A stretch of 59,527 nt of DNA from the IMG/VR virus record IMGVR_UViG_3300027976_000042, positions 1 through 59,527 of that record. The stretch is one strand, 5' to 3'. This DNA is from a virus (taxonomy: Duplodnaviria; Caudoviricetes). Made by a program: the position numbers and the translations under genes. The notes below the pieces were generated by a model that worked only from the letters and a program-made list of their open reading frames with translations, searched no databases and was not told where the DNA came from. Positions 19,070-48,057 of this stretch are shown here, one piece after another; the first letter of the stretch is position 1, and each line of letters opens with the position of its first letter.

Positions 19070-19990
19070 TTACAGAGCTTTGCCCGCTCTCCACTCTTCC
19101 ATCTCGAGATCTGAGACTCGAAACCAAGTCTGAACCCAGAATCCGTCTTCCGATCTCCTGACTTGAGCATCTTCGTCGATCAATTGTTCAGGGTCGTCGT
19201 CGAATACCCACTTTGCGAAGTCCTTTGCTTGGCATTCAGCTTCTGGTTTGTTTGCGGTAGGATCCCAAACTGAATCCAGGAAAGGGCATTCAGTCTCTCC
19301 TGAGAGGATCCTGACCAAGTCGCTTGGCCGGACTCTTCGATAATTTTCGAAATCTGCATTATCGGCTACGTGGAGACGCTCATCATAGTCGACAGCCCTC
19401 ACTCGAAATCCGGAGCACAATCTGGGAAAGGGGGTGTCAAAAGCATTTTCGTTGGCGACAAAAATGTATCCCACGAGCATAAAGCCTGAAAACGCAGAGC
19501 CGCCTCTTGATCCAGGATAGCCGGTATTTTTGATCAAGGGGATCCGAAAAGTAGGAAAGTTCCAGTCAAGCAGATCACTTGCGTAGATCATTTGATTATC
19601 GATCAAGACCTGCCGAAATTTCTCACACTCCTCATCCATCCTGCCCTTTACCGTGCCGTAAATAGAAGGCATCAGAAATCCAATGACTAAGGACGTGAGC
19701 CCTCCGTCTAACCTTGTCGCTGTTTCGCTCTCGGAAACAGACAGGTCAACCTGCCATTTTATCGGCCCATCTGCCAATCCGGAAAACGGAAAGTTAGGGA
19801 GTTTGAATTCCTCGAGAGATATGGACGCTTGATTTACCGACACGACCTTGTGGGTCTTCGATTGAAGCAAGAAGGTGCCCTGCACAGGGGAAGTCCCCTT
19901 GATTCTGACGACCCCGGGGTTGTCACAGTTTCCGCCTAGGACGATACCTAAGGATATGTCCTGAATTTTTGTTCGATGTATTTTAGCCAT
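19070..19990 (-). CDS. Hypothetical protein (306 aa) coupled to the RNAP beta-N gene
   Basis: TAATG overlap with the beta-N stop. Confidence 0.7.
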   Translation of the reverse strand: MAKIHRTKIQDISLGIVLGGNCDNPGVVRIKGTSPVQGTFLLQSKTHKVVSVNQASISLEEFKLPNFPFSGLADGPIKWQVDLSVSESETATRLDGGLTSLVIGFLMPSIYGTVKGRMDEECEKFRQVLIDNQMIYASDLLDWNFPTFRIPLIKNTGYPGSRGGSAFSGFMLVGYIFVANENAFDTPFPRLCSGFRVRAVDYDERLHVADNADFENYRRVRPSDLVRILSGETECPFLDSVWDPTANKPEAECQAKDFAKWVFDDDPEQLIDEDAQVRRSEDGFWVQTWFRVSDLEMEEWRAGKAL

Positions 19991-22359
19991 TAGCCATGGA
20001 ATTTAGGGAATAGAACTCTGCGTCCATAAATCTGAGAGGGGGTCCTCCAGACTTTTTTCCCCGTCCTGGCGTCGATCAGCGGAATGAAGACCTGATTGTT
20101 CGGTCCTTTTCTCGCTGACGATATGAGCCTTTGGTCAATGCCGACCATCCCCGATTCCGGAGTCCTGACAACGTCCACCACGCCCAATTGCGACGGGTGA
20201 ACATTCCTGGCCTCAACTGGAATCGATTCGCTGCTTCCAATCCCACCTTCACCAATCTGCGTGATGCGGAATCTGGCGTCCCATAGGTCAACTGGATTGA
20301 CTCCACCGACCGCCTGAGACAGGCTGTTGCCGACTATGAGACTCTCAAGTTGCGGGGTGAAGTGCCCCGACTTCAGGCCTTTCAGCGACCCATTGTATCT
20401 TGATCGGAATAGTAGAGTCCGGCCGATCTGGCCGGCGTCTTTAGCTACCCTCTCTTCCATGAAGTCATCCACAGTGTGGAAGGCCTGGTTCGCCTTGTCG
20501 TCTCGGTCATCCACGTCGGCCTCTCCCCTATTCATGGCGAGGAGCTTGCTGGTGACGTCTACAATTGTGTCTGGTCCGAAATTGGAATGGCTATGCCCAA
20601 GATTCCTCATCGAGATCTCTGGGTCAATTTCCATCTTGCTCAGTTGCTCCACTACGATACTGGCCCTTTCTTTTGTCAGGGCGTCCCCCTTGCCTCTCGG
20701 TAAGTCTGCCTGGGCCGGGCCGAACGATGAGGTCAAGGCCGCCAACTTAGGGCGAGCGGCACCGGGGATGGAGATTAAATCCCCAGCTCCCATCTCGGTT
20801 TTTATCAGCCTCTTGACCCCACTGGGGACCGATCCCTTCAGTGTGTGAATCCTGAACCCGGAAGGTTTGTGTGTGATCCCTGAGATTCCTTTATCTTCGG
20901 AGTCCACGAAGAACTCATCAGGCACCTCTCTCATGAGAGCGGTCAGGATTACCTGCTTCTGCTTGTAATTACCGCGGTCAGATTCTTTCTTTGCGGAAAT
21001 TAGAAGGTCGACCGCCCTTGATTGAGCCGTCTTCCTTTCTGATGCCGGAGACTTTACGTCATCGCTGGTTATCCAGTTCCTGAATTCCTGAATCGTCATC
21101 GGGGTAATGTTTCCGCACTTCCACCCCGCATTGAAATTTGAAAGATACAGATCTTTTGCCTCTTGGCGATTCTTTGTCCCGAACACAATTTTGTGCTTGT
21201 CAAACTTGCCACTCCCCTGAGTGACCTGATCTATGATAAAGACTATTTCAGAGCTTAGGTCTGGGCCCAGAAATACATCCAAGTGGTCTCCGTCGGCTCC
21301 GACTGTCCCTTTGATGTAGCCGTAGTCGCATTCCATTTTAGAGCTCCACCGGGCTCCGTTGGGTGCTATCCCGGATCTGATTGAGCCTTTCGGGTTCTCG
21401 ATCGTAATCGGGAGCCCGTCGATGCGGACATGGCCTTTCGCGTAATTTCCTGCGACGGCTCGAGCGTCGGATGGATTTTTGTCGACCATCCTTCTGGCCT
21501 GAGATAGGGCGCCTTTGTTGACGCTGAAGACGTCTTTTTTTCCGGGAACCACAATCAAGGCTGCTGCGGTCTTCCGCGGCCCATCGACAGAATCTCCACT
21601 GTCTTCTGGTTCTTCGTCCGGGATAGACAGGTCATCGGCAATTGCCGCGGCCTCCATCCTCTCCCTGAATCGATTAGCCCTGGTGCCGACCACCTTGTCG
21701 AAAAATTTATCAAAAGCCTTGTCGTCGGCCCCTTTTGAGTTCTGCTCCCAGACTTTTTCCCCCCATCTTTGCTTTAGGATGTCGTCGCTGACCCCGACTC
21801 CTTTCAGAATTGGGTAGAGTTTGATCCTGGAGTTCCCAATCATTGCTCGGAAGACTCCTGTCTCCGGCTCCATAAAAACCCTCATGGACGGTCCAGTCCC
21901 GGGTTTCGGATTCACGTGGGCCTCGAGTTCTCCATTCTCTTTTCTCCTGGAGTATACCCCAGGCCGCAGCCGGGTCTGGCTTGAGACCATGTATTCAGTC
22001 CCGTTATTGATGAAGGTCCCTCTCTCTGTCAGGTATGGGACGTTTGCGACAAGATGCTTTTTCTTTGTGTCGAGGAGTTCCCCGGTCACCTTATTGATCA
22101 TCTTGAAGTCTCCCCTAAGGGGGACCGAGAGTCGACCTCCGGACATCACAGCTTTCTTCTCGGATACTGGACCGTAGTAGAGCTTGTCCTCGTCGTAACT
22201 CAGATTAGAAAGTTCGATCCTGACGTCATTGTCCTCAAGTGGGAAGCGAGTCTCAAAGGCGCTTTTGGTCCTGTCCAGTATTGACGTGCGCAAAGCGTCC
22301 GTATCGTAAAACGATCGGAGCTGTGATTCGTCAATTTCTTGGATCTTGTCGCCGTTCAT
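19990..22359 (-). CDS. Phage RNA polymerase beta subunit, N-terminal half, with inserted InPase domain and a second unknown domain
   Basis: beta motifs: VPYLTERGTFINNGTEYMVSSQTRLRPGVY, VDDRD..N, LSQ..VNP..RITQIGEGGI, RNVHPSQLG..TPESGMVG; insert motifs: IENPKGS.R, DYGYIKGT, DGDHLDVF. Confidence 0.92.
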   Translation of the reverse strand: MNGDKIQEIDESQLRSFYDTDALRTSILDRTKSAFETRFPLEDNDVRIELSNLSYDEDKLYYGPVSEKKAVMSGGRLSVPLRGDFKMINKVTGELLDTKKKHLVANVPYLTERGTFINNGTEYMVSSQTRLRPGVYSRRKENGELEAHVNPKPGTGPSMRVFMEPETGVFRAMIGNSRIKLYPILKGVGVSDDILKQRWGEKVWEQNSKGADDKAFDKFFDKVVGTRANRFRERMEAAAIADDLSIPDEEPEDSGDSVDGPRKTAAALIVVPGKKDVFSVNKGALSQARRMVDKNPSDARAVAGNYAKGHVRIDGLPITIENPKGSIRSGIAPNGARWSSKMECDYGYIKGTVGADGDHLDVFLGPDLSSEIVFIIDQVTQGSGKFDKHKIVFGTKNRQEAKDLYLSNFNAGWKCGNITPMTIQEFRNWITSDDVKSPASERKTAQSRAVDLLISAKKESDRGNYKQKQVILTALMREVPDEFFVDSEDKGISGITHKPSGFRIHTLKGSVPSGVKRLIKTEMGAGDLISIPGAARPKLAALTSSFGPAQADLPRGKGDALTKERASIVVEQLSKMEIDPEISMRNLGHSHSNFGPDTIVDVTSKLLAMNRGEADVDDRDDKANQAFHTVDDFMEERVAKDAGQIGRTLLFRSRYNGSLKGLKSGHFTPQLESLIVGNSLSQAVGGVNPVDLWDARFRITQIGEGGIGSSESIPVEARNVHPSQLGVVDVVRTPESGMVGIDQRLISSARKGPNNQVFIPLIDARTGKKVWRTPSQIYGRRVLFPKFHG
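21070..21480 (-). other. Inorganic pyrophosphatase-like (InPase) domain inside RNAP beta-N
   Basis: GNYAKGHVRIDGLPITIENPKGSIRSG..W..M..DYGYIKGTVGADGDHLDVFLG..VFIIDQ..FDKHK..A..Y..F..W; DGDxLD matches the family I PPase metal-binding motif. Confidence 0.85.
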
Positions 22360-22379
22360 AGCTGCCAGCGTGCTGAAGC

Positions 22380-23393
22380 TTAGCCTGTGATGGGCAGGGG
22401 ATGGGCGTCAACTCCGATATCCATGAGGTCCTCTTCTAGGCCCAAAGATACCTCATCTGAATCTTCCCTGGCGGATTCCCCAATTTCTTGCTCCCGAGAG
22501 TCATTGGACCTCCGGGAAAATTCTTGAAGATTGAGGGCTATCAGTGTGTTTTGCAGAACCGATGCTGCGCCCTTCATAGACCGAGCTTCGCCGATCGACA
22601 CACTGGACATCAACAAGTCTGGATTTTTCTCTCGGAATTGTTTCCGGTTTTCGCTGATGTAAAGGTCGTCGAGGTCCCGCTCTTTTTGGAGCCTGCTCCT
22701 GTGCGTCAGAATTCCTGCCGCCACGGTAGTCAGGACCATCCCCCCAACCGCGAAGTCAGTGGCCCTGGAGAATTTATCCCCAAAGGACATAACGGCAGCT
22801 TTCCTTGAAGGCTCGGAACCCGAACCAGTTATCTTGTCGAGCCCCCCTTTTACAATATTTGGGAGATCGGATACTGAATCTGATACCTCATCTGACACCT
22901 CATCGACCACGTCCCTCTGAGGGACGCTCTCCTGCCCCCGGGTATGGGTGATCTTGTCCAGGTGCCTTGACTTCACAGTCCGAATTTCTCTCTCGAGCTG
23001 AGATTTCTCTCGGTTGTCCAGGTAGTTCGAAAGGATAGTGTAAGTTGCGACCCCGGGCAATGTCATTGCGGCAATTGAAACCGGGAGGTCCCAGGTTACG
23101 GGTCCTCGCGGAACTCCACCAAACCAGCCCCCCTCGGCAGAGAAGGTTTTCGACGCGACCTTTCGGCCCTCTTCCTGATCACCTTGTTGGGCCTCGGAGG
23201 CTGATCTCGCCTCAATTTTAGGAGCCGAGAGGAACTTCTTTCGGTTCCTCTCTTCCAGCTCTCCTCTGACGTCCGAGACCGCCTTCACCCCGAGCGCGAT
23301 TGCCACTCCTTTTGCGGCCGAAATGGTTCCGTATCTTGCGAGCCTGTCTTTGACTAGGCTGTAGACTCCGAGTCTGGGTTGGGAATTGGGCAT
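22380..23393 (-). CDS. Probable virion-internal protein with hydrophobic segments (337 aa)
   Basis: Gly/Ala-rich hydrophobic stretches alternating with charged linkers and RKxA motifs; same operon as RNAP beta-N. Confidence 0.5.
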   Translation of the reverse strand: MPNSQPRLGVYSLVKDRLARYGTISAAKGVAIALGVKAVSDVRGELEERNRKKFLSAPKIEARSASEAQQGDQEEGRKVASKTFSAEGGWFGGVPRGPVTWDLPVSIAAMTLPGVATYTILSNYLDNREKSQLEREIRTVKSRHLDKITHTRGQESVPQRDVVDEVSDEVSDSVSDLPNIVKGGLDKITGSGSEPSRKAAVMSFGDKFSRATDFAVGGMVLTTVAAGILTHRSRLQKERDLDDLYISENRKQFREKNPDLLMSSVSIGEARSMKGAASVLQNTLIALNLQEFSRRSNDSREQEIGESAREDSDEVSLGLEEDLMDIGVDAHPLPITG

Positions 23394-23420
23394 CGTAATG
23401 AATTGCTGGTTACTGGTTGC

Positions 23421-24089
23421 TCAAGCATCACCCTCTGGTCTGGTTGAGTCAACCGACTTGGGACCGGATCTTTTGAGCTTACGCCTGTCCACAACATCGA
23501 TTCTCTCCCTTTTCACCGCCGCCTCCGCTACGTCTCCCGTCCGGAGAACTATGATAGCCCGATAACCAAGCGGGGCGTTAGGGTCCAGAATAATGACCGG
23601 TGGAGCATCTTCCATGACCACGATCCTTTTTGATTTTGGGTGGCAGATGGTTTCAATCTCCTTTGAGTAAGCTGCGGCGTCCTCCGGTTTTGCCAAGTCA
23701 AAGACCACCGTCCTGATCTTCGCGTAATGCCTTACTACCTTCTCCTCTGTGTTTCTCGGACCGGGAAGAATGCCGTTGGTTGGGTCGGTTTGGACTTTGT
23801 TGAACTCCCCTGCGCCAAACCCTTCTTCTGGCTCGGCCTGATCTCGGGTTTTTTCAGGGTCTTCTTCGGCCTCGTCAAAATGGCTGTCAAAGCTGGTCGC
23901 AAATACGCTTTTGCCTCCAATAGGCGGGGGCCCTTCGGCCCTGTCAGCTTCTTTGGCTTCCTGGGGCTGAGAGCCCGATCCTTCGAGGTCTTCTTCTAGC
24001 AAGTCAGTCAGCATCCCTCGAAGCTCAGGCGGCATCTCGTGGTCGGCTTCCTGGTTCCCACCTTCTGTATCAAGTTGATCCTGCGTCAT
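23421..24089 (-). CDS. Acidic hypothetical protein (probable start MTQDQLD)
   Basis: Starts 2 nt after the upstream stop; VFDLAKPED..Y motif. Confidence 0.65.
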   Translation of the reverse strand: MTQDQLDTEGGNQEADHEMPPELRGMLTDLLEEDLEGSGSQPQEAKEADRAEGPPPIGGKSVFATSFDSHFDEAEEDPEKTRDQAEPEEGFGAGEFNKVQTDPTNGILPGPRNTEEKVVRHYAKIRTVVFDLAKPEDAAAYSKEIETICHPKSKRIVVMEDAPPVIILDPNAPLGYRAIIVLRTGDVAEAAVKRERIDVVDRRKLKRSGPKSVDSTRPEGDA

Positions 24090-24090
24090 C

Positions 24091-24558
24091 TCAGTCGAGG
24101 AGCTCAACCAAGGAGCCATTTTGTCCCTTGCTGTCAGGCTTAGGGGCTTTTGACGTAGTAGACCTGGACGCAACGTCGGGGCTTGATTGGGACGACTGCG
24201 GCTCTGCCTCCTCTTCTCCCGGGATAGCAAACCCGCCCCTGGACATGGCGATATCGGAGATTGCCCGAAGCCTCTCCCTTGTGTTCGCAACACTCGGACT
24301 TCTTCGTTTGCTGGCTGCAAGCTCGAGTCTGTGGTGCGCCCTGCCGGACATATCGCCGACTACTGCTGCAAGCACTGGCGGGGCCAGAAGCAAATACGGG
24401 GCTGCCTTTAATGCGCCCTCGATCATGTTTGCCTGTTTCATCTGGCCCGTGCGATCGCCGAAATGACTTCGAATGCCAGACTGGATGGCAAACCTTCTGT
24501 GTTTTTCGGAGTATTCGCCCCCCTTGATTAGATCGCTGATAATTTGTGACTCGTTCAT
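24091..24558 (-). CDS. Probable virion-associated protein (155 aa)
   Basis: MKQA motif followed by hydrophobic LLLAPPVLAAVVG. Confidence 0.55.
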   Translation of the reverse strand: MNESQIISDLIKGGEYSEKHRRFAIQSGIRSHFGDRTGQMKQANMIEGALKAAPYLLLAPPVLAAVVGDMSGRAHHRLELAASKRRSPSVANTRERLRAISDIAMSRGGFAIPGEEEAEPQSSQSSPDVASRSTTSKAPKPDSKGQNGSLVELLD

Positions 24559-25410
24559 TTATCTGTAAGTTTTGAATCCTGGGGTGTAAGTCCAACTGTC
24601 GGACCTTTGGTTCTCTAAGACTGCTCCTCCGATCATAGCTCCAACGACTGCGGAGATTCCTCTTTGAACTGGCCCGGCGCCGGCGGCTCTGGCTGCAAAA
24701 TAACCAGCTATGGCTCCTCCGCCCTGGTGGATTAAAGAGTCCATGGACGCTGACCTGCCAGATCCGCGTGTCGCTTCGTCGATCTGACGGAACATAATCC
24801 TTTTGGTCTCAAACGGGATTGCCGAGTCAGCCATGACCTGCCTTTTTAGTTGATCGTCTGACGCCCTCCAGGCTGCCTTTTTTTCCGCCCACATACGTCC
24901 TAGGCTCACTGACAGGTCTTTAGGCGGCGGACCGTGAAGGAGGTCGTTCCAGGGACCAGGAACCTGCGGCATTCGGGCCCTGACTCTGGTCTCGATGTCG
25001 CTGCCCGGCTTGACCAGAAGTTTCTGAATCGACCCTCCCGGAAGCAGGGGTTCGGACCCTCTCTCCGGGACAGACCTTTTAAACAACGACAGATGCTTTC
25101 CGATCGTAGACTTCGGATTGTTTGCCGCTGACACCGCGGCGTTAGTCAAGGCTGATGTTCCCAGTCCTGCGGCGGCGCCGTAGAGCCCCCGCCTGAGCCT
25201 CCTCCTCCTTGCTTCGTCTGGGGTCGCTCCTGGGTCGTTTAACCCAAATCTGTCCATTGCCACGTCAGACGCCATTCCCAATCCAGCCCCGATGGCGGTT
25301 GCTGCAGCCAGAGATCCAACGACTGATCCTCCTTTCGGCGGGGCTATGGGGGACAGAAGGAAATCCCCAATCCCGTAACCCTTTGCCAATTTCTGTCTTG
25401 TCGTGATCAT
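24559..25410 (-). CDS. Gly/Ala-rich probable virion-internal protein (283 aa)
   Basis: Glycine-zipper-like segments (AIGAGLG, GAAAGLG, GAIAG, GAMIGG); KxA motifs. Confidence 0.55.
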   Translation of the reverse strand: MITTRQKLAKGYGIGDFLLSPIAPPKGGSVVGSLAAATAIGAGLGMASDVAMDRFGLNDPGATPDEARRRRLRRGLYGAAAGLGTSALTNAAVSAANNPKSTIGKHLSLFKRSVPERGSEPLLPGGSIQKLLVKPGSDIETRVRARMPQVPGPWNDLLHGPPPKDLSVSLGRMWAEKKAAWRASDDQLKRQVMADSAIPFETKRIMFRQIDEATRGSGRSASMDSLIHQGGGAIAGYFAARAAGAGPVQRGISAVVGAMIGGAVLENQRSDSWTYTPGFKTYR

Positions 25411-25425
25411 TCTTGGTTTTCCCAG

Positions 25426-25454
25426 AGAATACTATTCGTTCCTGGCGAGCTCAA
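25426..25454 (-). promoter_or_regulatory. sigma70-like promoter heading the virion/RNAP beta-N operon
   Basis: TTGAGC-N17-TATTCT, 15 nt upstream of the ATG at 25410. Confidence 0.55.
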
Positions 25455-25505
25455 GACGTTTCTGATGGCTTTCGGGTCTGACTTTGTCGGCCTTGGCCCT
25501 TTTTG

Positions 25506-25859
25506 TCACTCACTGTCATCGATATCATGTTTGTTCCACCTAGCACCCAGAGAATACTCATCCTGGATCCCTGCCGAAAAGCCGGGAATCATTTCGGTGA
25601 GTTCCGCTGCGCCCAAGATTTCCGGGCTGTCGATGAGTCTGACCTCCTTTACTTTGGCTGGGCAGCCTTCTTTCTCGAGGGCTGCTACACGAGATTCTGC
25701 TCCCGACTTTGTCAGCCACACAGAGTCGACTGGTTTTTCCCAGTTATCCGCAATTACGAGATGCAGCCCTTTAAGCATTCTCACCCCTCCTTCCAACCTA
25801 AGGGTTATCCCCAGCTCAACAATGGAGCGACTGACCAATATTCTGCTATCTTTTGACAT
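25506..25859 (-). CDS. Hypothetical protein (117 aa)
   Basis: Collinear ORF. Confidence 0.55.
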   Translation of the reverse strand: MSKDSRILVSRSIVELGITLRLEGGVRMLKGLHLVIADNWEKPVDSVWLTKSGAESRVAALEKEGCPAKVKEVRLIDSPEILGAAELTEMIPGFSAGIQDEYSLGARWNKHDIDDSE

Positions 25860-25861
25860 AA

Positions 25862-27184
25862 TTATCCTTCATCCCCATCTGGGGGGTTTACGAGTATGGG
25901 TTCAAACCATTTTTCTTTTTTCTGTTGCCGGCCCTTTCCGAAAGATACGGTATGGATGTGTCCGGCCCTCCAATGGGTAACCACTTTTTTACCACTTGGC
26001 TCTAGCCCTGGCCCTGGCGGACTTTGATAAGTTACCCTCCTCTTGTATGACGCGCCTATTGTCCTTGGAGTCCTGACGTCAACCTGACCAGATTTCCGGC
26101 TTCTTATGGTTCCTGTTTTTGAACTTGAACCCATTAACTCTGGCCGCATTGAGGCGATGAGGCATAAGTTAACTGCCGCCGAAACTGTAGTTATTATGTG
26201 ATCCCTACTGACGGGTTCGATCTCCTGCCCATCTCCTGTGCTATGGCCGAAGTTGGCGTTTCTGAGCCTCTCTATGGCCTTTCCAACTTGACATGCTCCG
26301 TCTTCTACTTGGATTGGTATTGACGTTATTACCCGGCTTCTATTGCATGCATGCACATTGACAAACCTCAGTTCATTGACATTTACGACGTGGACAAAAA
26401 GATGAGTAATTTCGACATCGGCCGAATACGTCAACCCGCGAAGGTCGGACATTCCTTTTGGGACAACGAATGTCATCGATTTGAATGGCATCGGAGTCAG
26501 GTCCATATTCCAGACTTCGGGGGGTTTTGTTCTAAGGGCAGCGTCATACATTTGTCGACCTACGATCCAAAATGGAAAATCGTGTAACTGCCCAGCTACA
26601 AAGGCCATTAAGATATTCCTGTCATCGCCGGCCATGATGGATTTCATCCGCATGTGAGCGATCTCGTAGCTGACCTTCTTTCCCTTAAATTCCGGACCAG
26701 AGATATCCGAGGTCCCGGCTTCTAAGCTCTGAGTATGACTCCGAAACCTTTCGGTCACCATGGCTCCCCTGGCCATAAAGGCCGCTACTGGTCTCACTCC
26801 ATGTGACCAGTTCGGACAATCCCATTTGATTTTTTTGAATACCTCAAACCATCCCTTGTTGTTTTTTGCGGCAAAATTTTCGTAAATATCTTCGCATTCT
26901 CTTTCCTGCTCACGAAACGCGGAATCCGTTAGGGTCAGGCAGCTCAAGGTGATTAAGCTCGAGCATTCTGACAATGGGTAGATCTCCGTTCCGGTGGACT
27001 GAGTCCCGGGAAGCTTCCGAAACATATCGGCAAGATTCAATAAGTCTCCGCTCTTAATGAATTTGCTTATCTCGTGGATCCATATCCCAGTTAGTTCCTT
27101 GATGGCCTCCGCAATTTTTACCGCCTCTGCGTCTTTGTATAAACTCCTGAACCTCTTGTCCAATCTTTCGAGTTTGCTGGTCAT
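25862..27184 (-). CDS. Hypothetical protein with C-terminal HWRxGH motif (440 aa)
   Basis: THWRAGHIH..GKGRQQKKEKWFEPILVN, a recurrent phage C-terminal motif. Confidence 0.75.
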   Translation of the reverse strand: MTSKLERLDKRFRSLYKDAEAVKIAEAIKELTGIWIHEISKFIKSGDLLNLADMFRKLPGTQSTGTEIYPLSECSSLITLSCLTLTDSAFREQERECEDIYENFAAKNNKGWFEVFKKIKWDCPNWSHGVRPVAAFMARGAMVTERFRSHTQSLEAGTSDISGPEFKGKKVSYEIAHMRMKSIMAGDDRNILMAFVAGQLHDFPFWIVGRQMYDAALRTKPPEVWNMDLTPMPFKSMTFVVPKGMSDLRGLTYSADVEITHLFVHVVNVNELRFVNVHACNRSRVITSIPIQVEDGACQVGKAIERLRNANFGHSTGDGQEIEPVSRDHIITTVSAAVNLCLIASMRPELMGSSSKTGTIRSRKSGQVDVRTPRTIGASYKRRVTYQSPPGPGLEPSGKKVVTHWRAGHIHTVSFGKGRQQKKEKWFEPILVNPPDGDEG

Positions 27185-27396
27185 GAGATCAGGTAAGCTT
27201 TTGTTGATGCTGCCACGTCCGTTGTCGTGACTTCTATTGTCCCGTCAAATTTCATTGTGTGGAACGTGACGTTGGGAATCTCGAGGATCTCATCCCCGCG
27301 AGCGTCTGTTAAAACCCCTTCGGCCATGGACATGGTAAATCCCTCCGGGAAAACGCGGCCTTCGATTTTAACACTTTTGGTAAATACGTATTTCAT
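27181..27396 (-). CDS. Small hypothetical protein (start MKYVFTK)
   Basis: The longer ORF-track start would run through the terminator; ATGA overlap at the 3' end. Confidence 0.55.
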   Translation of the reverse strand: MKYVFTKSVKIEGRVFPEGFTMSMAEGVLTDARGDEILEIPNVTFHTMKFDGTIEVTTTDVAASTKAYLIS

Positions 27397-27425
27397 ATTT
27401 TTGATAATTTTGCAATTGAGCCATG

Positions 27426-27457
27426 AAAAAGGGGCCGACAGTGAAGTCGGCCCCTTT
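27426..27457. terminator. Rho-independent terminator
   Basis: AAAAA-GGGGCCGAC-agtgaa-GTCGGCCCC-TTT. Confidence 0.85.
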
Positions 27458-27506
27458 CTTGCTCTTTTTTCTTGGGGCTCGCCCAATTCCTCCGCAAAGC
27501 TGAAGA

Positions 27507-28070
27507 TCAGCCGTTGGTTTTTTTGGGGCTCTTCACTATCTTCAGCTCTGTCGGCGCTGCCTTGTCGGCTGCTGCCTGCTCGGCTGCCTTGTCGGCTGCT
27601 GCCTTGTCGGCTGCTGCCTTGTCGGCTGCTGCCTTGTCGGCTGCTGCCTTGTCGGCTGCTGCCTTGTCGGCTGCTGCCTGCTCGGCTGCTGCCTGCTCGG
27701 CTGCCTCGTCGGCCGCTGCCGGTTCGGTTGCGGATTTCACCCCAGGCGTCACGGACAGAGAAGGAGATGGTGGGTTTTTGTCGGCGTTCGGTCTTTCGAT
27801 GACCTGAACGTATAGGCTACCCACGGATGATCTCTGGATCCTGCTGTCTTCCGCGCCGGAAGGTGAGCCATTGTCGTCTTCGGTTTTGGTTTCTGCGGCT
27901 TCGGCTTCTGCGGCTTCGGCGACAAATGAGTTGAAATTCTGGACGAGCTTCTCGATCCCATTTTTGACTGCGAGGCCTTGTCTCGACGTCGAGATTAGAT
28001 GGCTGTCAAATTTTAGAGCTGAGATGAAAATGCCGCCTTGCCGATTCTGTGAAATGATGATGGATACCAT
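27507..28070 (-). CDS. Ala-rich repeat protein with (AAADK)n
   Basis: Own promoter and terminator; in-frame pentapeptide repeats. Confidence 0.7.
   Translation of the reverse strand: MVSIIISQNRQGGIFISALKFDSHLISTSRQGLAVKNGIEKLVQNFNSFVAEAAEAEAAETKTEDDNGSPSGAEDSRIQRSSVGSLYVQVIERPNADKNPPSPSLSVTPGVKSATEPAAADEAAEQAAAEQAAADKAAADKAAADKAAADKAAADKAAADKAAEQAAADKAAPTELKIVKSPKKTNG
27556..27720. repeat. 15-bp coding tandem repeat (GCTGCCTTGTCGGCT and variants)
   Basis: Several exact copies plus EQ-type variants read directly. Confidence 0.95.
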
Positions 28071-28105
28071 GTTCCCATATTATCTGCCTATGCTCGGCCT
28101 GTCAA
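28071..28105 (-). promoter_or_regulatory. Consensus sigma70-like promoter, leaderless spacing
   Basis: TTGACA-N17-TAATAT-N6-ATG. Confidence 0.75.
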
Positions 28106-28674
28106 GGGAGAGATCCGACAGGACAGCCGGCGGAGGATCCGGGAAAAGCCATTTCCACGACGTCTGCCGAGCCGGCAAACGCTGGAATAAGTAAGATCAC
28201 AAGTCCTGAGTCCAAGGAGAAGACGTATCCAGATCCAAGTCCTTCGCCGCCGGCGTCGCTCAAAACCTCGATGTCCAACTTGGACACGAGTGACCCCCCG
28301 GTGATCCCCTTCTCGGATATTTCCTGAATTACCTCCTCTGCTCTATCGGTATTGCTGCCACCTGACGGATCATCTTTCCACTTTTTGAGATCCACTCCGA
28401 CCGCGTCTAGGAAGGAACTTGTCGTCAAAGCTGAATTACTGGACTGGTCTACCATCAAGATTGGCAGTCCACCATTCTCCAAGATCCAGGAGATGTCGGG
28501 ACCTGACATGTCCTTGATGATAGATGCGACCTTGGTGGTCGCCAAGTGCTTCGAGATCATCGTGACTCCGGCCCCGGCAACCAGAATTAAAACCGCCAGG
28601 ATGGACAGTCTTTGCCAGAGACTCACAAGGCTGTAGCTTGCGCTGCGCGACATTGATTCAGTTTTTGATCTCAT
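28102..28674 (-). CDS. Membrane-anchored protein coupled to the holin gene
   Basis: ATGA overlap with the holin stop; N-terminal TM LSILAVLILVAGAGVTMI. Confidence 0.6.
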   Translation of the reverse strand: MRSKTESMSRSASYSLVSLWQRLSILAVLILVAGAGVTMISKHLATTKVASIIKDMSGPDISWILENGGLPILMVDQSSNSALTTSSFLDAVGVDLKKWKDDPSGGSNTDRAEEVIQEISEKGITGGSLVSKLDIEVLSDAGGEGLGSGYVFSLDSGLVILLIPAFAGSADVVEMAFPGSSAGCPVGSLP

Positions 28675-29150
28675 CTGTGTTTGGGCGGTGTGGTTTCTTT
28701 TTCTTGTTCTTCCTCTACGTCTACCCCGAGGAGGACAGATGCCTTTTTCTTCAAAACCTTGATGCTGAAGTCGACCACGGTAGTCCCTCCAAACCCCGCC
28801 ATGGCAGAAATGCCAATGAGCAAGTAGATGTCCTGCCCTGCAAACCGACTCCAAAGAACCAGGGCCACTATGAAGCCCATGATTCCGCTATTCAGAATGG
28901 CGGAAACTATCTGGACCCAGGTGATGCTTTGACCACTCCTCAGAAGCGCCGCAAGGCCTCCGAGCGAGGCGAAAAGAAATATTCCGCAAAAAAAGACCCA
29001 GTGGTCGGTGCTGTAGCCCTGCTCACCGTCCTGGAATCTCCTGTCGTCAGCCTGGGCGAGAGTTGAACTCCCCGGGGTTGATTGATGCAGCCACGGTGAG
29101 GTCTTCCTATCGTCTTCCTCGCGATTTCGAAACTGGTTTTCGTTGTTCAT
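28671..29150 (-). CDS. Putative holin (LydA-like)
   Basis: Three TM segments: LFASLGGLAALL, ILNSGIMGFIVALVL, IGISAMAGFGG; charged C-terminal tail. Confidence 0.65.
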   Translation of the reverse strand: MNNENQFRNREEDDRKTSPWLHQSTPGSSTLAQADDRRFQDGEQGYSTDHWVFFCGIFLFASLGGLAALLRSGQSITWVQIVSAILNSGIMGFIVALVLWSRFAGQDIYLLIGISAMAGFGGTTVVDFSIKVLKKKASVLLGVDVEEEQEKETTPPKHR

Positions 29151-44874: not shown

Positions 44875-47800
44875 TTACTGATTTTCCGTTTCCGGGAATA
44901 TTATTGTGTCTGCGACCAAGGAGCGTTTGCCTCCAAAGTCATTGATTCTTCCATTCACCACAACCAAGTCCCTGACTTTTAAGAAGTCTGCGACCTCAGA
45001 ATAGAGGTCACTGAAGACTGTTACCGAAGCAGTTGAATCTTGATTAGCAACCGAGATGAAGCACATGGCGTCTCCCTTTTTCGTGTTGATCTTCTTGATT
45101 TCCCTGACAACTCCCCCTATCGACGTTCTCGCTCCGTCTGCCCTCGCTGCTACGACCGAAGCACACTGAACGGATCTCTCCGTTATCCTGGAGAGGTATC
45201 CAGCATAGTCCGGCTCGATCATCGGGAACGCATCTCCCTGAGCCTTCATTACCTGAATCTCGTTTAGATCCGTGAACGAGCTTTGTTTCTCCCCCCTCAG
45301 CTCCAGATATCTCCTGTAGATTGCATTTCTTCCCAGGATACTATCCCGGGGTCCGACGCCGAACAGGTTATCCATGGCCCCAGACCAGATCAAAGCTGAG
45401 AATACTCTCTTGTTCGCTTTCTTCCGATCAATCTTCTGGTAAAGCTCCTCCATTGAGCAGAACGGCCTGGCCTCGATGACAGCTTCGGCCGCCGTCTTGA
45501 CTCCGTGGACCATCCTGAGAGGGAACACGATGCGTCCCTTGTCTGACCTGCCCACCTTGTCGGCGACGAACACATCAACATCACTTGATATGACATCAGG
45601 TGTCGAGATGTATCTCGAGCAGAATCTGGCGTTAGCTCTCAGGTCGTCCTTGCTACTATTCTGCAGGGCGCTTGCCCACCACTCGACCGGGTAATTCTCC
45701 TTGAGGTATTGGCAAACATATCCCAAATAAGAGTAAGCCAGTGAGTGACTATTTGACACCACCACCCCATTGGCGATGAAGTTGTGATCCTTGCTGTCGA
45801 CCTCAAGGTCCCGGGTGGGCGCCATGCCTAAGCTTCTGACAGAGACAATTTTGCTCAATTGCGTAATCTCGCAATCGCTGTGTGGCCACTGAGTGAACAC
45901 ACGCCATCCATTTTGCAGGATTTCCCATAGAGGGCGCTGGGTCCCGTCTTCGCAGAGGTATTTGTGATTTATTGATGTCTGCAATTTCATCTCATTCTCC
46001 AGCTCCACCTCCCACAGCTCGGCTTCCGAATCCATCACGTCCGTCACCCGGACGAAATGTTCAGAGCCCGTAGCAACTTCATAAGCCTTCACGAATTCTC
46101 CCTTCTCAATGCATCCGATGGGCCTGTCCCCGTTGGGCGTTTGCAGTTTCACGTCAAGCCCGATGCATTTATTAAACGAGTAGTTCGAGGCGGCAATGCA
46201 GAGCGAGATAAATGATTCGGTCTGGGATTCCGTCCATCCATTGGCTGACAGCCTTAATCTGATCTCCGGGATCAGGGCATCCATTTTGTCTTTCTTTTTC
46301 TTCCCCACAATCTCCCGGATCTCATCGGCTTCTTCCTCTGAATAGCCGCAGGCAATCTGGAACATCTCTGTGATCTGCTCCTGAAAAAGACAAACCCCGC
46401 CGGTGGGCTCGAGAATGCCTTTTACCGATGGGTGAACGAAAGACGGGTTCTTAGACATATCCCTCACTCCAACCCACTGGTCGACCAGAGTTGTCTCCCC
46501 GTCCGGCATCAAAGCAAACAGGGTCCCTGGCCTCCCGGCGGCGGTCATCTGGGCCAGGTCGAGAATCGAGACTGGCTTGTATCGGCGAGAGAGATCGATC
46601 CCGATCGGCTTGTTGAACTGAAACACCGTTTCATTTCTGCCTTCATGAAAAGCTAACCAAGTCTTCTCGTCATCCAAGGGAATGTCGTAGATATCGATGT
46701 TCTTCCCCCTGATTCTTCCGACCCATGATACGGCGCCGCTGACATCCTTTAGGGTGTTCAACCCTAGGATGTCCATCTTTATCAGCCCCATGGCCTCCAC
46801 CGGTCCCATCGGATACTGAGTGCATTCTTCTCCGTTTACCCGGCAAATGGGGATGATGTCTGGAATTGAAGAGTCTGCTGCGGCATAGGCCGAAGCGTGT
46901 CGCCCGATTGATTTCGGAATATTGAGGACGTCCTCAACTCCTCGTCTTACCTGGGGATACTTCTCAAAGAAGTTTGCCACGATCGGTATTTCGTCAATGA
47001 TCCCGGGATGAAAGACTTCCATTTCGTCCGTGTATCCGAAGATCCATCCTTTTGAGTCCGCTACCCCTTGAGGGGCAAAGGGCAATGCTTTTGCCACCTC
47101 ATCCACCTCAAGAGCCTTTTCCGGATCGGTCTGAGTCGATAGCACCACCCGAGAGACCTCCCTGATTGCGCTTCTGCCTCTGATGGTTCCCAGGGTGCAG
47201 ATCCTGATGAATCTGTCCCCAAGCTCGGCTTTCATAATCTCAGCGACCACTGATGGGTTGGCAAAGTCCAAATCGATGTCGGGGAATTTTCTCCTACCGA
47301 TCCGAGCATTAGACAGAAATCTGTAAAAGCTTAGGCCCCACTTGATAGGGTCCAAGTGGGTGATATTCAAAAGGTAAGCCAGCAAACATCCAGCCGCGGA
47401 TCCACGCCCGGGGCCGCTATTCTCGCCGGCAGCTCTGGCTTTCCGGCACACCTCCTCGACAAAGAGGAAGTATGGCAAGAAGTTGACAACCCCATTGTTG
47501 GCAATGACTTCGATCTCCTCTTCCAGCCGTGTTATATATTCCGGTTCGTCTCTTGGCATTCTGCCATGCTCCTTAATCAGATCTGCGATCATCCTAAGAT
47601 ATTGGGCGTCAAGGTCTTCCGGAAATTTGTCTTTCACCTTCTGAGGGACGTTGACGGAGGGCATCCGAATCCGGGTCTCGACGTGGATTTTGTCCACCAT
47701 TGAAACCAGGAGTTCGTTGTTTTCGACAGCCTCTTTGAACTCGGAAGAGAAGTCTGCCAACCCCAGGCTGCCGGACCATAGATCCCACGCCTGCTCCGTG

Positions 47801-48057
47801 GTCATCTGGTAGTAGGCCTCTGTGAATCTCCAGCCATCCGGGTTCCCGTTTTGCAGGAGGATGTCTTGAACAAACTTGAGGTCGGGGCTGACCATATGAC
47901 TGTCCGTGGTCAGCAAAAGCGGAAGTTTTAGGTCGTTTGCCAGCTCCATCATCTCCAAGTTTATGAACCTCTGGGTGTCACCACTTGGCATGTCGAACGT
48001 GCACTCCTTGCCTACTTTGCCACCTGCCACGCTCCACGATTTGATCCTTTTTCCCAT
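44875..48057 (-). CDS. dnaE: DNA polymerase III alpha (DnaE), large C-terminal part, intein-containing
   Basis: TTDSH, GPGRGSAAG, PDIDLDF, GRHASA, KMDILGL, VFQF, RPG, FQEQ, YSFNK|SHS.AY, C-terminal OB fold (TKKGDAMCF). Confidence 0.95.
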   Translation of the reverse strand: MGKRIKSWSVAGGKVGKECTFDMPSGDTQRFINLEMMELANDLKLPLLLTTDSHMVSPDLKFVQDILLQNGNPDGWRFTEAYYQMTTEQAWDLWSGSLGLADFSSEFKEAVENNELLVSMVDKIHVETRIRMPSVNVPQKVKDKFPEDLDAQYLRMIADLIKEHGRMPRDEPEYITRLEEEIEVIANNGVVNFLPYFLFVEEVCRKARAAGENSGPGRGSAAGCLLAYLLNITHLDPIKWGLSFYRFLSNARIGRRKFPDIDLDFANPSVVAEIMKAELGDRFIRICTLGTIRGRSAIREVSRVVLSTQTDPEKALEVDEVAKALPFAPQGVADSKGWIFGYTDEMEVFHPGIIDEIPIVANFFEKYPQVRRGVEDVLNIPKSIGRHASAYAAADSSIPDIIPICRVNGEECTQYPMGPVEAMGLIKMDILGLNTLKDVSGAVSWVGRIRGKNIDIYDIPLDDEKTWLAFHEGRNETVFQFNKPIGIDLSRRYKPVSILDLAQMTAAGRPGTLFALMPDGETTLVDQWVGVRDMSKNPSFVHPSVKGILEPTGGVCLFQEQITEMFQIACGYSEEEADEIREIVGKKKKDKMDALIPEIRLRLSANGWTESQTESFISLCIAASNYSFNKCIGLDVKLQTPNGDRPIGCIEKGEFVKAYEVATGSEHFVRVTDVMDSEAELWEVELENEMKLQTSINHKYLCEDGTQRPLWEILQNGWRVFTQWPHSDCEITQLSKIVSVRSLGMAPTRDLEVDSKDHNFIANGVVVSNSHSLAYSYLGYVCQYLKENYPVEWWASALQNSSKDDLRANARFCSRYISTPDVISSDVDVFVADKVGRSDKGRIVFPLRMVHGVKTAAEAVIEARPFCSMEELYQKIDRKKANKRVFSALIWSGAMDNLFGVGPRDSILGRNAIYRRYLELRGEKQSSFTDLNEIQVMKAQGDAFPMIEPDYAGYLSRITERSVQCASVVAARADGARTSIGGVVREIKKINTKKGDAMCFISVANQDSTASVTVFSDLYSEVADFLKVRDLVVVNGRINDFGGKRSLVADTIIFPETENQ
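45751..46167 (-). mobile_element. Mini-intein (139 aa) in DnaE, no homing endonuclease
   Basis: CIGLDVKLQTPNG..TSINHKY..TRDLEV..HNFIANGVVVSN followed by Ser; removal restores FNKSHS. Confidence 0.93.

Follow-up and report, generated by a model that had tools for sequence, protein, structure and literature searches.

An InPase domain inserted in the beta lobe of a tailed-phage RNA polymerase, very likely at the gate loop: a possible passenger enzyme

The viral record IMGVR_UViG_3300027976_000042 (59,527 nucleotides, referred to here as the window; a fragment with an estimated completeness of 31%) comes from a freshwater tailed phage with a genome of about 190 kb, kin of Salmonella phage Arash (181 kb) and of the Vibrio phages D181, D148 and D69 (187 kb). 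All its large open reading frames (ORFs) lie on one strand, and one of them, ORF 19990-22359 on the minus strand, encodes the N-terminal part of a bacterial-type RNA polymerase (RNAP) beta subunit, hereafter beta-N. Inside this protein of 789 amino acids (aa) lies an InPase domain, a member of the inorganic pyrophosphatase (PPase) group that is otherwise known from phage polyvalent and portal proteins. Sequence comparison and structure prediction lead us to regard it as a passenger enzyme that the polymerase bears on a tether and that has no part in the polymerase mechanism, a reading to which we give a probability of about one half.

The polymerase identity of the protein is carried by two separate stretches that match beta chains of the PDB in phmmer searches (E 1.7e-17 to 1e-8). 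Residues 37-199 and 607-753 match the cyanobacterial beta chain 8syi_C (E 1.7e-17), while residues 594-745 align with Escherichia coli beta 420-575. A profile built from insert-less relatives scores E 7e-26, the full AlphaFold2 model matches beta chains in Foldseek (E 2e-16), and the Pfam family Rpb2_3 falls slightly below its cut-off (20.5 vs 21). Between the two beta flanks, Pfam recognizes InPase (PF18823) at E 2.6e-49, with 167 bits against a cut-off of 26.8 and profile positions 3-134 of 135 covered; a family search of the record placed InPase at 21070-21462 (E 1.2e-51, 169.7 bits). The initial annotation of this gene, made from the letters alone, had proposed just such a domain, and the motifs that it quoted are all present (IENPKG at 320-325, DYGYI at 345-349, DGDHLDV at 356-362 and FDKHK at 386-390). 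The canonical family I PPase, PF00719, stays below its cut-off in the Pfam scan (15.9 vs 23.5 bits) and touches residues 340-363 only.

The structure predictions point the same way. In the full model (mean pLDDT, the predicted local distance difference test score, of 83) the flanks are well predicted, the N-flank mostly above 90, and an ordered unit stands between two low-confidence segments. Folded alone, this unit reaches a pLDDT of 90.7, and its residues 16-155 match family I pyrophosphatases as well as viral InPase-bearing polyvalent, portal and tail proteins. The best 50 rows of the Foldseek search of the PDB are all PPases, with E only 5e-4 and TM 0.3-0.4, and so are the best 8 rows in VIA (Z 5.0-5.7). 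In BFVD the matches are polyvalent, portal and tail InPase proteins, with E down to 1e-21 and an rmsd of 1.4 over 167 columns; together with matches in PHROG and the PDB to polyvalent and portal proteins, these agree with the link to phage polyvalent proteins drawn in the initial annotation. The insert is thus predicted to be a folded InPase followed by a module of about 65 aa, held on two low-confidence and probably flexible linkers.

The position of the insert differs from what had been assumed. The initial annotation ended the first stretch of beta homology after SDDIL, gave the insert about 290 aa and equated its site with the SI1 position of E. coli in the beta2/lobe region. Beta homology runs some 30 residues further, to about residue 229, and the comparison with insert-less relatives yields an insert of about 335 aa (residues ~230-565). 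The assignment to the lobe stands, while that to SI1 does not. A profile of six insert-less relatives gave a contiguous HMMER alignment to three cyanobacterial beta chains with the insertion point opposite PGEP/PT, and Bacillus subtilis beta has the same register at this point. In E. coli the motif RPGEPPT covers residues 371-377, inside the gate loop, which the accessible text of PMC9300723 defines as E. coli beta 368-378, whereas SI1 corresponds to E. coli beta 225-343, as taken from the deltaSi1 construct in the accessible text of PMC6970531. Because the insertion point aligns with 371-377 and SI1 occupies 225-343, the insert very likely sits in the gate loop of the beta lobe and outside SI1.

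The fusion is not confined to the window. The RNAP family counts 13,331 representatives at E up to 1e-3; our census took the best 150 of them and 45 word-index hits, and in this set of 189 proteins, beta flanks and an InPase are combined in 23 (the window and 22 further database proteins). The InPase lies between both flanks in 12 of these, eight show the N-flank and cargo without a C-flank, one is a fragment, and in the last two the InPase is N-terminal (P0050) or located between Rpb2_3 and Rpb2_6 (P0091). A quick FastTree tree was computed on the joined flanks (148 rows, after 41 had been dropped for a missing flank). In this tree the window falls in a clade of 138 of the 148 rows (support 97), from which the four bacterial-like outgroup rows are separate. 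Nine of the 11 gate-loop InPase rows fall in a single clade (support 99), sister to insert-less proteins of about 500 aa, while P0056 and P0059 stand outside it, and the InPase label takes three changes on the tree. Given this distribution, the fusion appears to be old within one clade and to have arisen again elsewhere, and at other positions in other lineages.

A further feature of the relatives is the variety of domains found at the same site. Within the InPase group, the InPase is accompanied by a HAD-like segment and GNAT (P0002-P0004), by AAA_18 (P0065) or by HAD_PNKP (P0111), and in P0023 and P0124 a 2H domain with an additional match to the anti-CBASS family Acb1, PF23474 (E 2e-6 and 3e-5), comes after a beta-N fragment and InPase. 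As a control for the bias of an InPase-containing query, other large inserts between the same flanks were scanned. Seven relatives (L010, L011, L014, L015, L016, P0068 and P0075) carry a 2H-SAK phosphoesterase between the same boundaries (query ~224-229 and ~569-576), in some of them together with SET, LNS2 (HAD-type) or DUF5661; in the five L loci this cargo lies at about 10631-12031 of the locus. The name stands for "Swiss Army Knife" and comes from Pfam alone, our literature search for such 2H proteins having found none. In P0025 (593 aa) the N-flank went undetected and 2H-SAK precedes the C-flank. Large gaps in L018, L031, P0014, P0055 and P0058 were considered as loop cargo and rejected, being inteins at other positions.

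In six of the 13 viral loci examined (L024, L028, L029, L032, L034 and L037) the two lobe halves are encoded by neighbouring ORFs, the first half with about 270-300 extra C-terminal residues, so that beta can evidently be split at the gate loop. A separate protein of 953 aa with an N-terminal InPase and LNS2 (HAD-type), L121:31-2892, is encoded upstream of a fused beta gene that has no insert, at a distance of about 4 kb. The cargo list at the loop comprises InPase, 2H-SAK or Acb1-like, SET, HAD-type, GNAT and P-loop domains. In a single polypeptide the window has InPase and one unassigned module, to which relatives add HAD-like, GNAT, Acb1-like 2H and AAA_18 domains. Since relatives lacking InPase carry 2H-SAK, SET or HAD-type domains there, or split beta, the gate loop appears to serve as a cargo platform in this lineage, with a repertoire that partly overlaps that of phage polyvalent proteins. 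InPase is absent throughout the complete genomes of Arash and D181, and is dispensable for the lineage.

The module that follows the InPase (65-70 aa, within about 20812-21027) is also shared with other phage enzymes. Homologs are found on ATP-dependent DNA ligases (L031:1-1311, with 47% identity to the ligase C-terminus, and L025:3-839), on an unassigned protein (L033:677-1489) and on a 2H-SAK/DUF5661 protein (L078:517-2178), with six further loci matched at an upstream position similar to that in L078; among the 23 RNAP-InPase proteins, nine have it. Searches for its fold or family, in the Atlas with residues 436-520 and VIA-wide, gave generic helical or TPR-like matches only (feature score 0.87; Z at most 4.7). 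The module resembles a portable unit for docking or targeting. A complex prediction of the insert against beta'-N residues 565-1008, run without controls, scored 0.01, a value that speaks neither for nor against contact.

Residue 388 bears on whether the window copy is an active enzyme. The active-site positions E321, Y346, D356, D358, D361, D387 and K390 are kept, most of them invariant in our two InPase alignments (A4 and A5), and E321, YGY and DxDxxD align by hhalign to E20, Y55 and D65/D67/D70 of E. coli Ppa, which we take to be active-site residues. The initial annotation had cautioned that FDKHK replaces the usual FDEHK, and this caveat is now stronger: Glu occupies the position in 26 of 27 related InPase segments, and in the portal protein of PDB 9b41 as well. 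The Lys codon, AAG, is one transition away from GAG. The alignment to Ppa is secure in the N-terminal half and unreliable around FDKHK; from the strand register, residue 388 would correspond to the metal ligand D102 of Ppa. In one region the window InPase is about 10 residues shorter than Ppa, as judged from the hhalign sequence alignment alone. Because of the Lys at a position where nearly all related segments have Glu, activity of the window copy is doubtful, and normal PPase activity seems to us the less probable outcome, albeit a serious one.

In the arrangement that we favour, the beta chain would leave the polymerase at the lobe tip, in the gate loop, through a low-confidence linker of about 30 residues, form a compact unit of polyvalent-type InPase and shared module, and re-enter the polymerase through a second linker of about 40 residues. 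The InPase would act as a phosphoanhydride hydrolase, with inorganic pyrophosphate (PPi) as its most likely substrate. Since one copy would be fixed to each polymerase, the hydrolase would accompany that polymerase in place and time and would most plausibly be needed at the start of infection, and in the window phage the Glu-to-Lys change may have weakened or altered its activity. Two roles had been put forward in the initial annotation, a tethering of PPi removal to transcription and a use of the RNAP as carrier. The carrier fits better, because relatives hold unrelated enzymes at the same loop and two complete genomes are without InPase. A bolder extension, which we offer tentatively and consider improbable as it stands, is that this multisubunit RNAP is delivered by the virion and that its gate loop is a socket for early effectors of the polyvalent type (InPase, Acb1-like or SAK 2H phosphoesterases, SET, GNAT, HAD and kinase domains); such a multisubunit "polyvalent polymerase" would let enzymes for counter-defence and nucleotide clearing enter the cell along with the first transcription machine.

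Several points weigh against the passenger reading. The gate-loop mapping is a sequence alignment to cyanobacterial and B. subtilis beta, and an hhalign alignment of the insert-less profile to E. coli RpoB was unreliable across SI1 and left unused for mapping. Flexibility of the linkers is read solely from low pLDDT. The census query contained the InPase, so that InPase cargo is over-represented among the best matches, and InPase in beta-N was found in none of the 41 viral and 80 metagenome loci fetched by RNAP patterns (these came from alignment-based searches; a single-protein search of viral contigs for related loci gave no match). The presence of InPase at three different positions of beta could point to a specific link with polymerase chemistry. 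Finally, with Lys388 the window copy may have no catalytic role.

Such a link would be a dedicated PPi sink, the InPase clearing the PPi released at each nucleotide addition, curbing pyrophosphorolysis and product inhibition and speeding phage transcription. In favour of this role, InPase is joined to the beta family at three positions in separate lineages, and the window copy retains the residues of DxDxxD, IENP-Glu and YGY as well as Lys390. Precedents exist: the accessible text of Iyer et al. 2017 suggests that polyvalent InPases may clear PPi for early transcription or replication, and that of Iyer et al. 2021 (PMC7824862) describes an active HD phosphohydrolase on a beta C-terminal homolog in AR9-type Bacillus phages. 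The reading is nevertheless weakened, because the same loop in relatives holds domains unconnected with PPi (2H-SAK, SET and HAD-type) and because complete relatives do without InPase; the window copy, moreover, has Lys for a near-invariant Glu. Because PPi diffuses fast and exits by the secondary channel, well away from the gate loop, a tether would gain little over a free enzyme. We consider a PPi sink unlikely.

A second alternative makes the cargo a counter-defence effector: the RNAP would be packaged and injected, and the domains on its loop would hit host nucleotide signals or proteins, with a messenger or alarmone, not PPi, as substrate. The window InPase does belong with polyvalent and portal fusions, which are thought to be injected (Iyer et al. 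2017, accessible text), its co-cargo in relatives includes Acb1-like 2H (an anti-CBASS family name), GNAT, HAD and kinase-like domains, and the portal gene neighbours the RNAP genes, which in Arash are flanked by genes with structural annotations. The Arash RNAP genes themselves, however, are not annotated as structural, an in-frame insert would stay on the polymerase unless cleaved, and Pfam family names do not test function. A literature search on Salmonella phage Arash found no paper. We rate this explanation as quite unlikely.

A third alternative, in favour of which stands Lys388, a replacement of the near-invariant Glu that is fixed in three sequencing runs, is a non-catalytic appendage: a pseudoenzyme acting sterically at the gate loop, by changing DNA loading or cleft closure, or by blocking NusG-like factors. 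Published work treats the gate loop as a gate in promoter loading that also takes part in the contact with NusG/RfaH (accessible texts, PMC9300723 among them). The other 22 RNAP-linked InPases have kept the Glu, however, the domain is predicted on long low-confidence linkers and not packed on the lobe, and relatives carry InPase N-terminally and at another internal site; taken together, these make an appendage very unlikely.

The window derives from a metagenome assembly, and inteins are known in beta-N of relatives (P0014, P0055 and P0058). An assembly chimera at the insert edges, which the initial annotation named as one of the results that would overturn its proposal, was checked and found no support: three freshwater-metagenome runs each yielded contigs of about 24 kb that span 19800-22500, free of differences, joints and loose ends, at a depth of 10-26. 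These runs are possibly the source samples, so that the independence lies in the assembler and not in the sample; a fourth run (X4) gave two short identical pieces only, and the runs listed as containing the sequence include no RNA run. With one open reading frame through the whole gene, the 789-aa protein unchanged on six contigs, diverged homologs sharing the beta-InPase architecture, and no Hint, intein or LAGLIDADG match to the protein in Pfam, an artefact (chimera, intein or inserted mobile gene) is hardly credible.

The coordinates of the features discussed are collected in Table 1. The 1008-aa neighbour, which the initial annotation had called a subunit, is indeed an RNAP partner of beta-N, though not a plain subunit: it is a beta-C::beta'-N fusion, with NADFDGD intact at residues 916-922, and its homologs are D181 0267 and the C-terminal two thirds of Arash gp206. 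The RNAP is cut unlike the cellular enzyme, into beta-N and then beta-C joined to beta'-N across the canonical beta/beta' boundary. The beta'-C domain (PF04998) was not found within the window, a record about 31% complete. D181 has the same split as the window (beta-N of 514 aa, beta-C::beta'-N of 1006 aa), Arash has both parts fused into 1525 aa directly after the portal gene, and relatives range up to proteins of 1500-3000 aa with both beta flanks, probably whole-beta or beta-beta' fusions. In several relatives (P0014, P0055, P0058; L018, L031) the beta-N sequence is broken by LAGLIDADG inteins, and in D181 a free-standing homing endonuclease gene (L002:10728-11345) lies between beta-N and beta-C::beta'-N. 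The window RNAP fits the RNAP-encoding tailed phages described in the accessible part of Weinheimer and Aylward 2020, and the RNAP of Arash, D181 and their kin probably corresponds to the lineage named mReC in that paper.

Table 1. Features of the RNAP region in the window (position 1 is the first nucleotide of the 59,527).
Feature	Position	Strand	Basis
Beta-N gene with insert, 789 aa	19990..22359	-	Single ORF; beta homology on both sides; InPase inside
N-flank, residues 1-229, beta protrusion and first part of lobe	21673..22359	-	Aligns with insert-less relatives and bacterial beta 39-200
Insert of ~335 aa, residues ~230-565, very likely gate-loop position	20665..21672	-	Absent from 5 insert-less sequences of alignment A1, including D181
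Linker 1, residues 249-279, acidic, predicted disordered	21523..21615	-	pLDDT <50, full model
InPase (PF18823), residues 300-430	21070..21462	-	Pfam and genome search; family I PPase fold; viral polyvalent/portal InPases
Lys388 codon AAG	21196..21198	-	Glu (FDEHK) in 26/27 related InPase segments; no variant in contigs of three runs
Post-InPase module, residues ~445-510, two helices and three-stranded sheet	20830..21027	-	Ordered in both models
Linker 2, residues 519-557, predicted disordered	20689..20805	-	pLDDT <50
C-flank, residues 566-789, remaining lobe to fork-loop and Rpb2_3 region	19993..20664	-	E. coli beta 420-575; insert-less relatives
Partner, 1008-aa beta-C::beta'-N fusion	13556..16582	-	Rpb2_6 E 4.3e-41, Rpb1_1, Rpb1_2, Rpb1_3
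Portal protein homolog, 597 aa	29155..30948	-	BLASTP E 2e-50 to Arash gp204 (annotated portal), 1e-51 to D181 0261

The gene order portal, beta-N, beta-C::beta'-N is common to the window, Arash and D181. Portal and beta-N are nearly adjacent in Arash and D181, and in the window about 7 kb (22380-28854, minus strand) with ORFs without family matches lie between the two; a weak homolog of the ORF at 22380-23393 (E 1.5e-10) is found in L006, where it immediately precedes beta-N on the upstream side. A MYG1/UPF0160-family protein (11408-12562, E 5e-54) and a tRNA-Arg(CCT) (10609-10683) are encoded on the minus strand downstream of the window's polymerase genes. Elsewhere in the window, a DNA polymerase III alpha homolog of 1060 aa (44875-48057, minus strand) shows no Pfam match over its first ~170 residues; the PHP domain usually lies in the first part of this enzyme.

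A conserved, functional loop of the beta lobe very likely carries swappable enzyme-type domains across a large and environmentally widespread phage lineage. If the passenger reading is true, the gate loop is a natural, tolerated graft site on a bacterial-type RNAP, even tolerated as a split point, which would be useful for engineering. Should the polymerase be injected, the idea of polyvalent proteins would widen from single-subunit N4-like enzymes to multisubunit ones. Should the InPase aid transcription instead, these phages would offer a direct test of the extent to which PPi limits RNAP in cells, with the natural Glu388Lys variant as a built-in control.

Among the closest known systems are the RNAPs of Arash and D181, which share with the window the split (D181), the gene order after the portal gene and 30-47% identity, and differ in having a short loop and no InPase in their genomes. 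SI1 of E. coli (beta-i4) resembles the window insert as a lineage-specific beta-lobe insertion with which the core enzyme can cope; its site is 225-343, compared with 371-377 for the window insert, and it is a non-enzymatic domain, in contrast to the enzyme-type domain found here. In cellular RNAPs, as far as is known, lineage-specific inserts are domains without enzymatic function. The bacterial gate loop itself, inside whose RPGEPPT the window insertion point aligns, is short and meets sigma region 1.2 and NusG/RfaH (accessible texts, PMC9300723 among them), whereas the window's is expanded by about 335 residues and that of some relatives is the point at which beta is split.

The InPases of polyvalent and portal proteins (Iyer et al. 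2017; PDB 9b41, gp19 portal) are of the same family as the window InPase (167 bits), 129 residues of which can be aligned with the InPase at the C-terminus of the 9b41 portal (E 4e-27). The fold is the same and the DxDxxD, YGY and Lys positions are kept in the window copy; there, however, the domain sits at a protein end and has FDEHK, while here it is an internal insert in a multisubunit RNAP beta and has FDKHK. The accessible text of Iyer et al. 2017 treats InPase in polyvalent and portal proteins and discusses fusions of N4-type virion RNAP, with no mention of multisubunit RNAP, and neither pyrophosphatase nor insertion occurs in the accessible main text of Weinheimer and Aylward 2020. In line with the initial annotation, which knew of no characterised multisubunit RNAP-InPase fusion, we found none in the literature, though the supplements of these two papers may list such proteins; nor did we find a report of gate-loop cargo in a literature search that left supplementary files outside. 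Two further phage systems are close in kind. The AR9-type HD-beta fusion (Iyer et al. 2021, PMC7824862, accessible text) likewise places a phosphohydrolase on a phage multisubunit RNAP beta homolog, but the enzyme belongs to another superfamily, the RNAP lineage is highly diverged and the fusion is terminal, as opposed to the gate-loop insert of the window. The N4-like virion RNAP in polyvalent proteins (Iyer et al. 2017, accessible text) similarly joins a phage RNA polymerase to effector domains, but it is a T7-like enzyme of one subunit, for which injection has been demonstrated, whereas the window RNAP is multisubunit.

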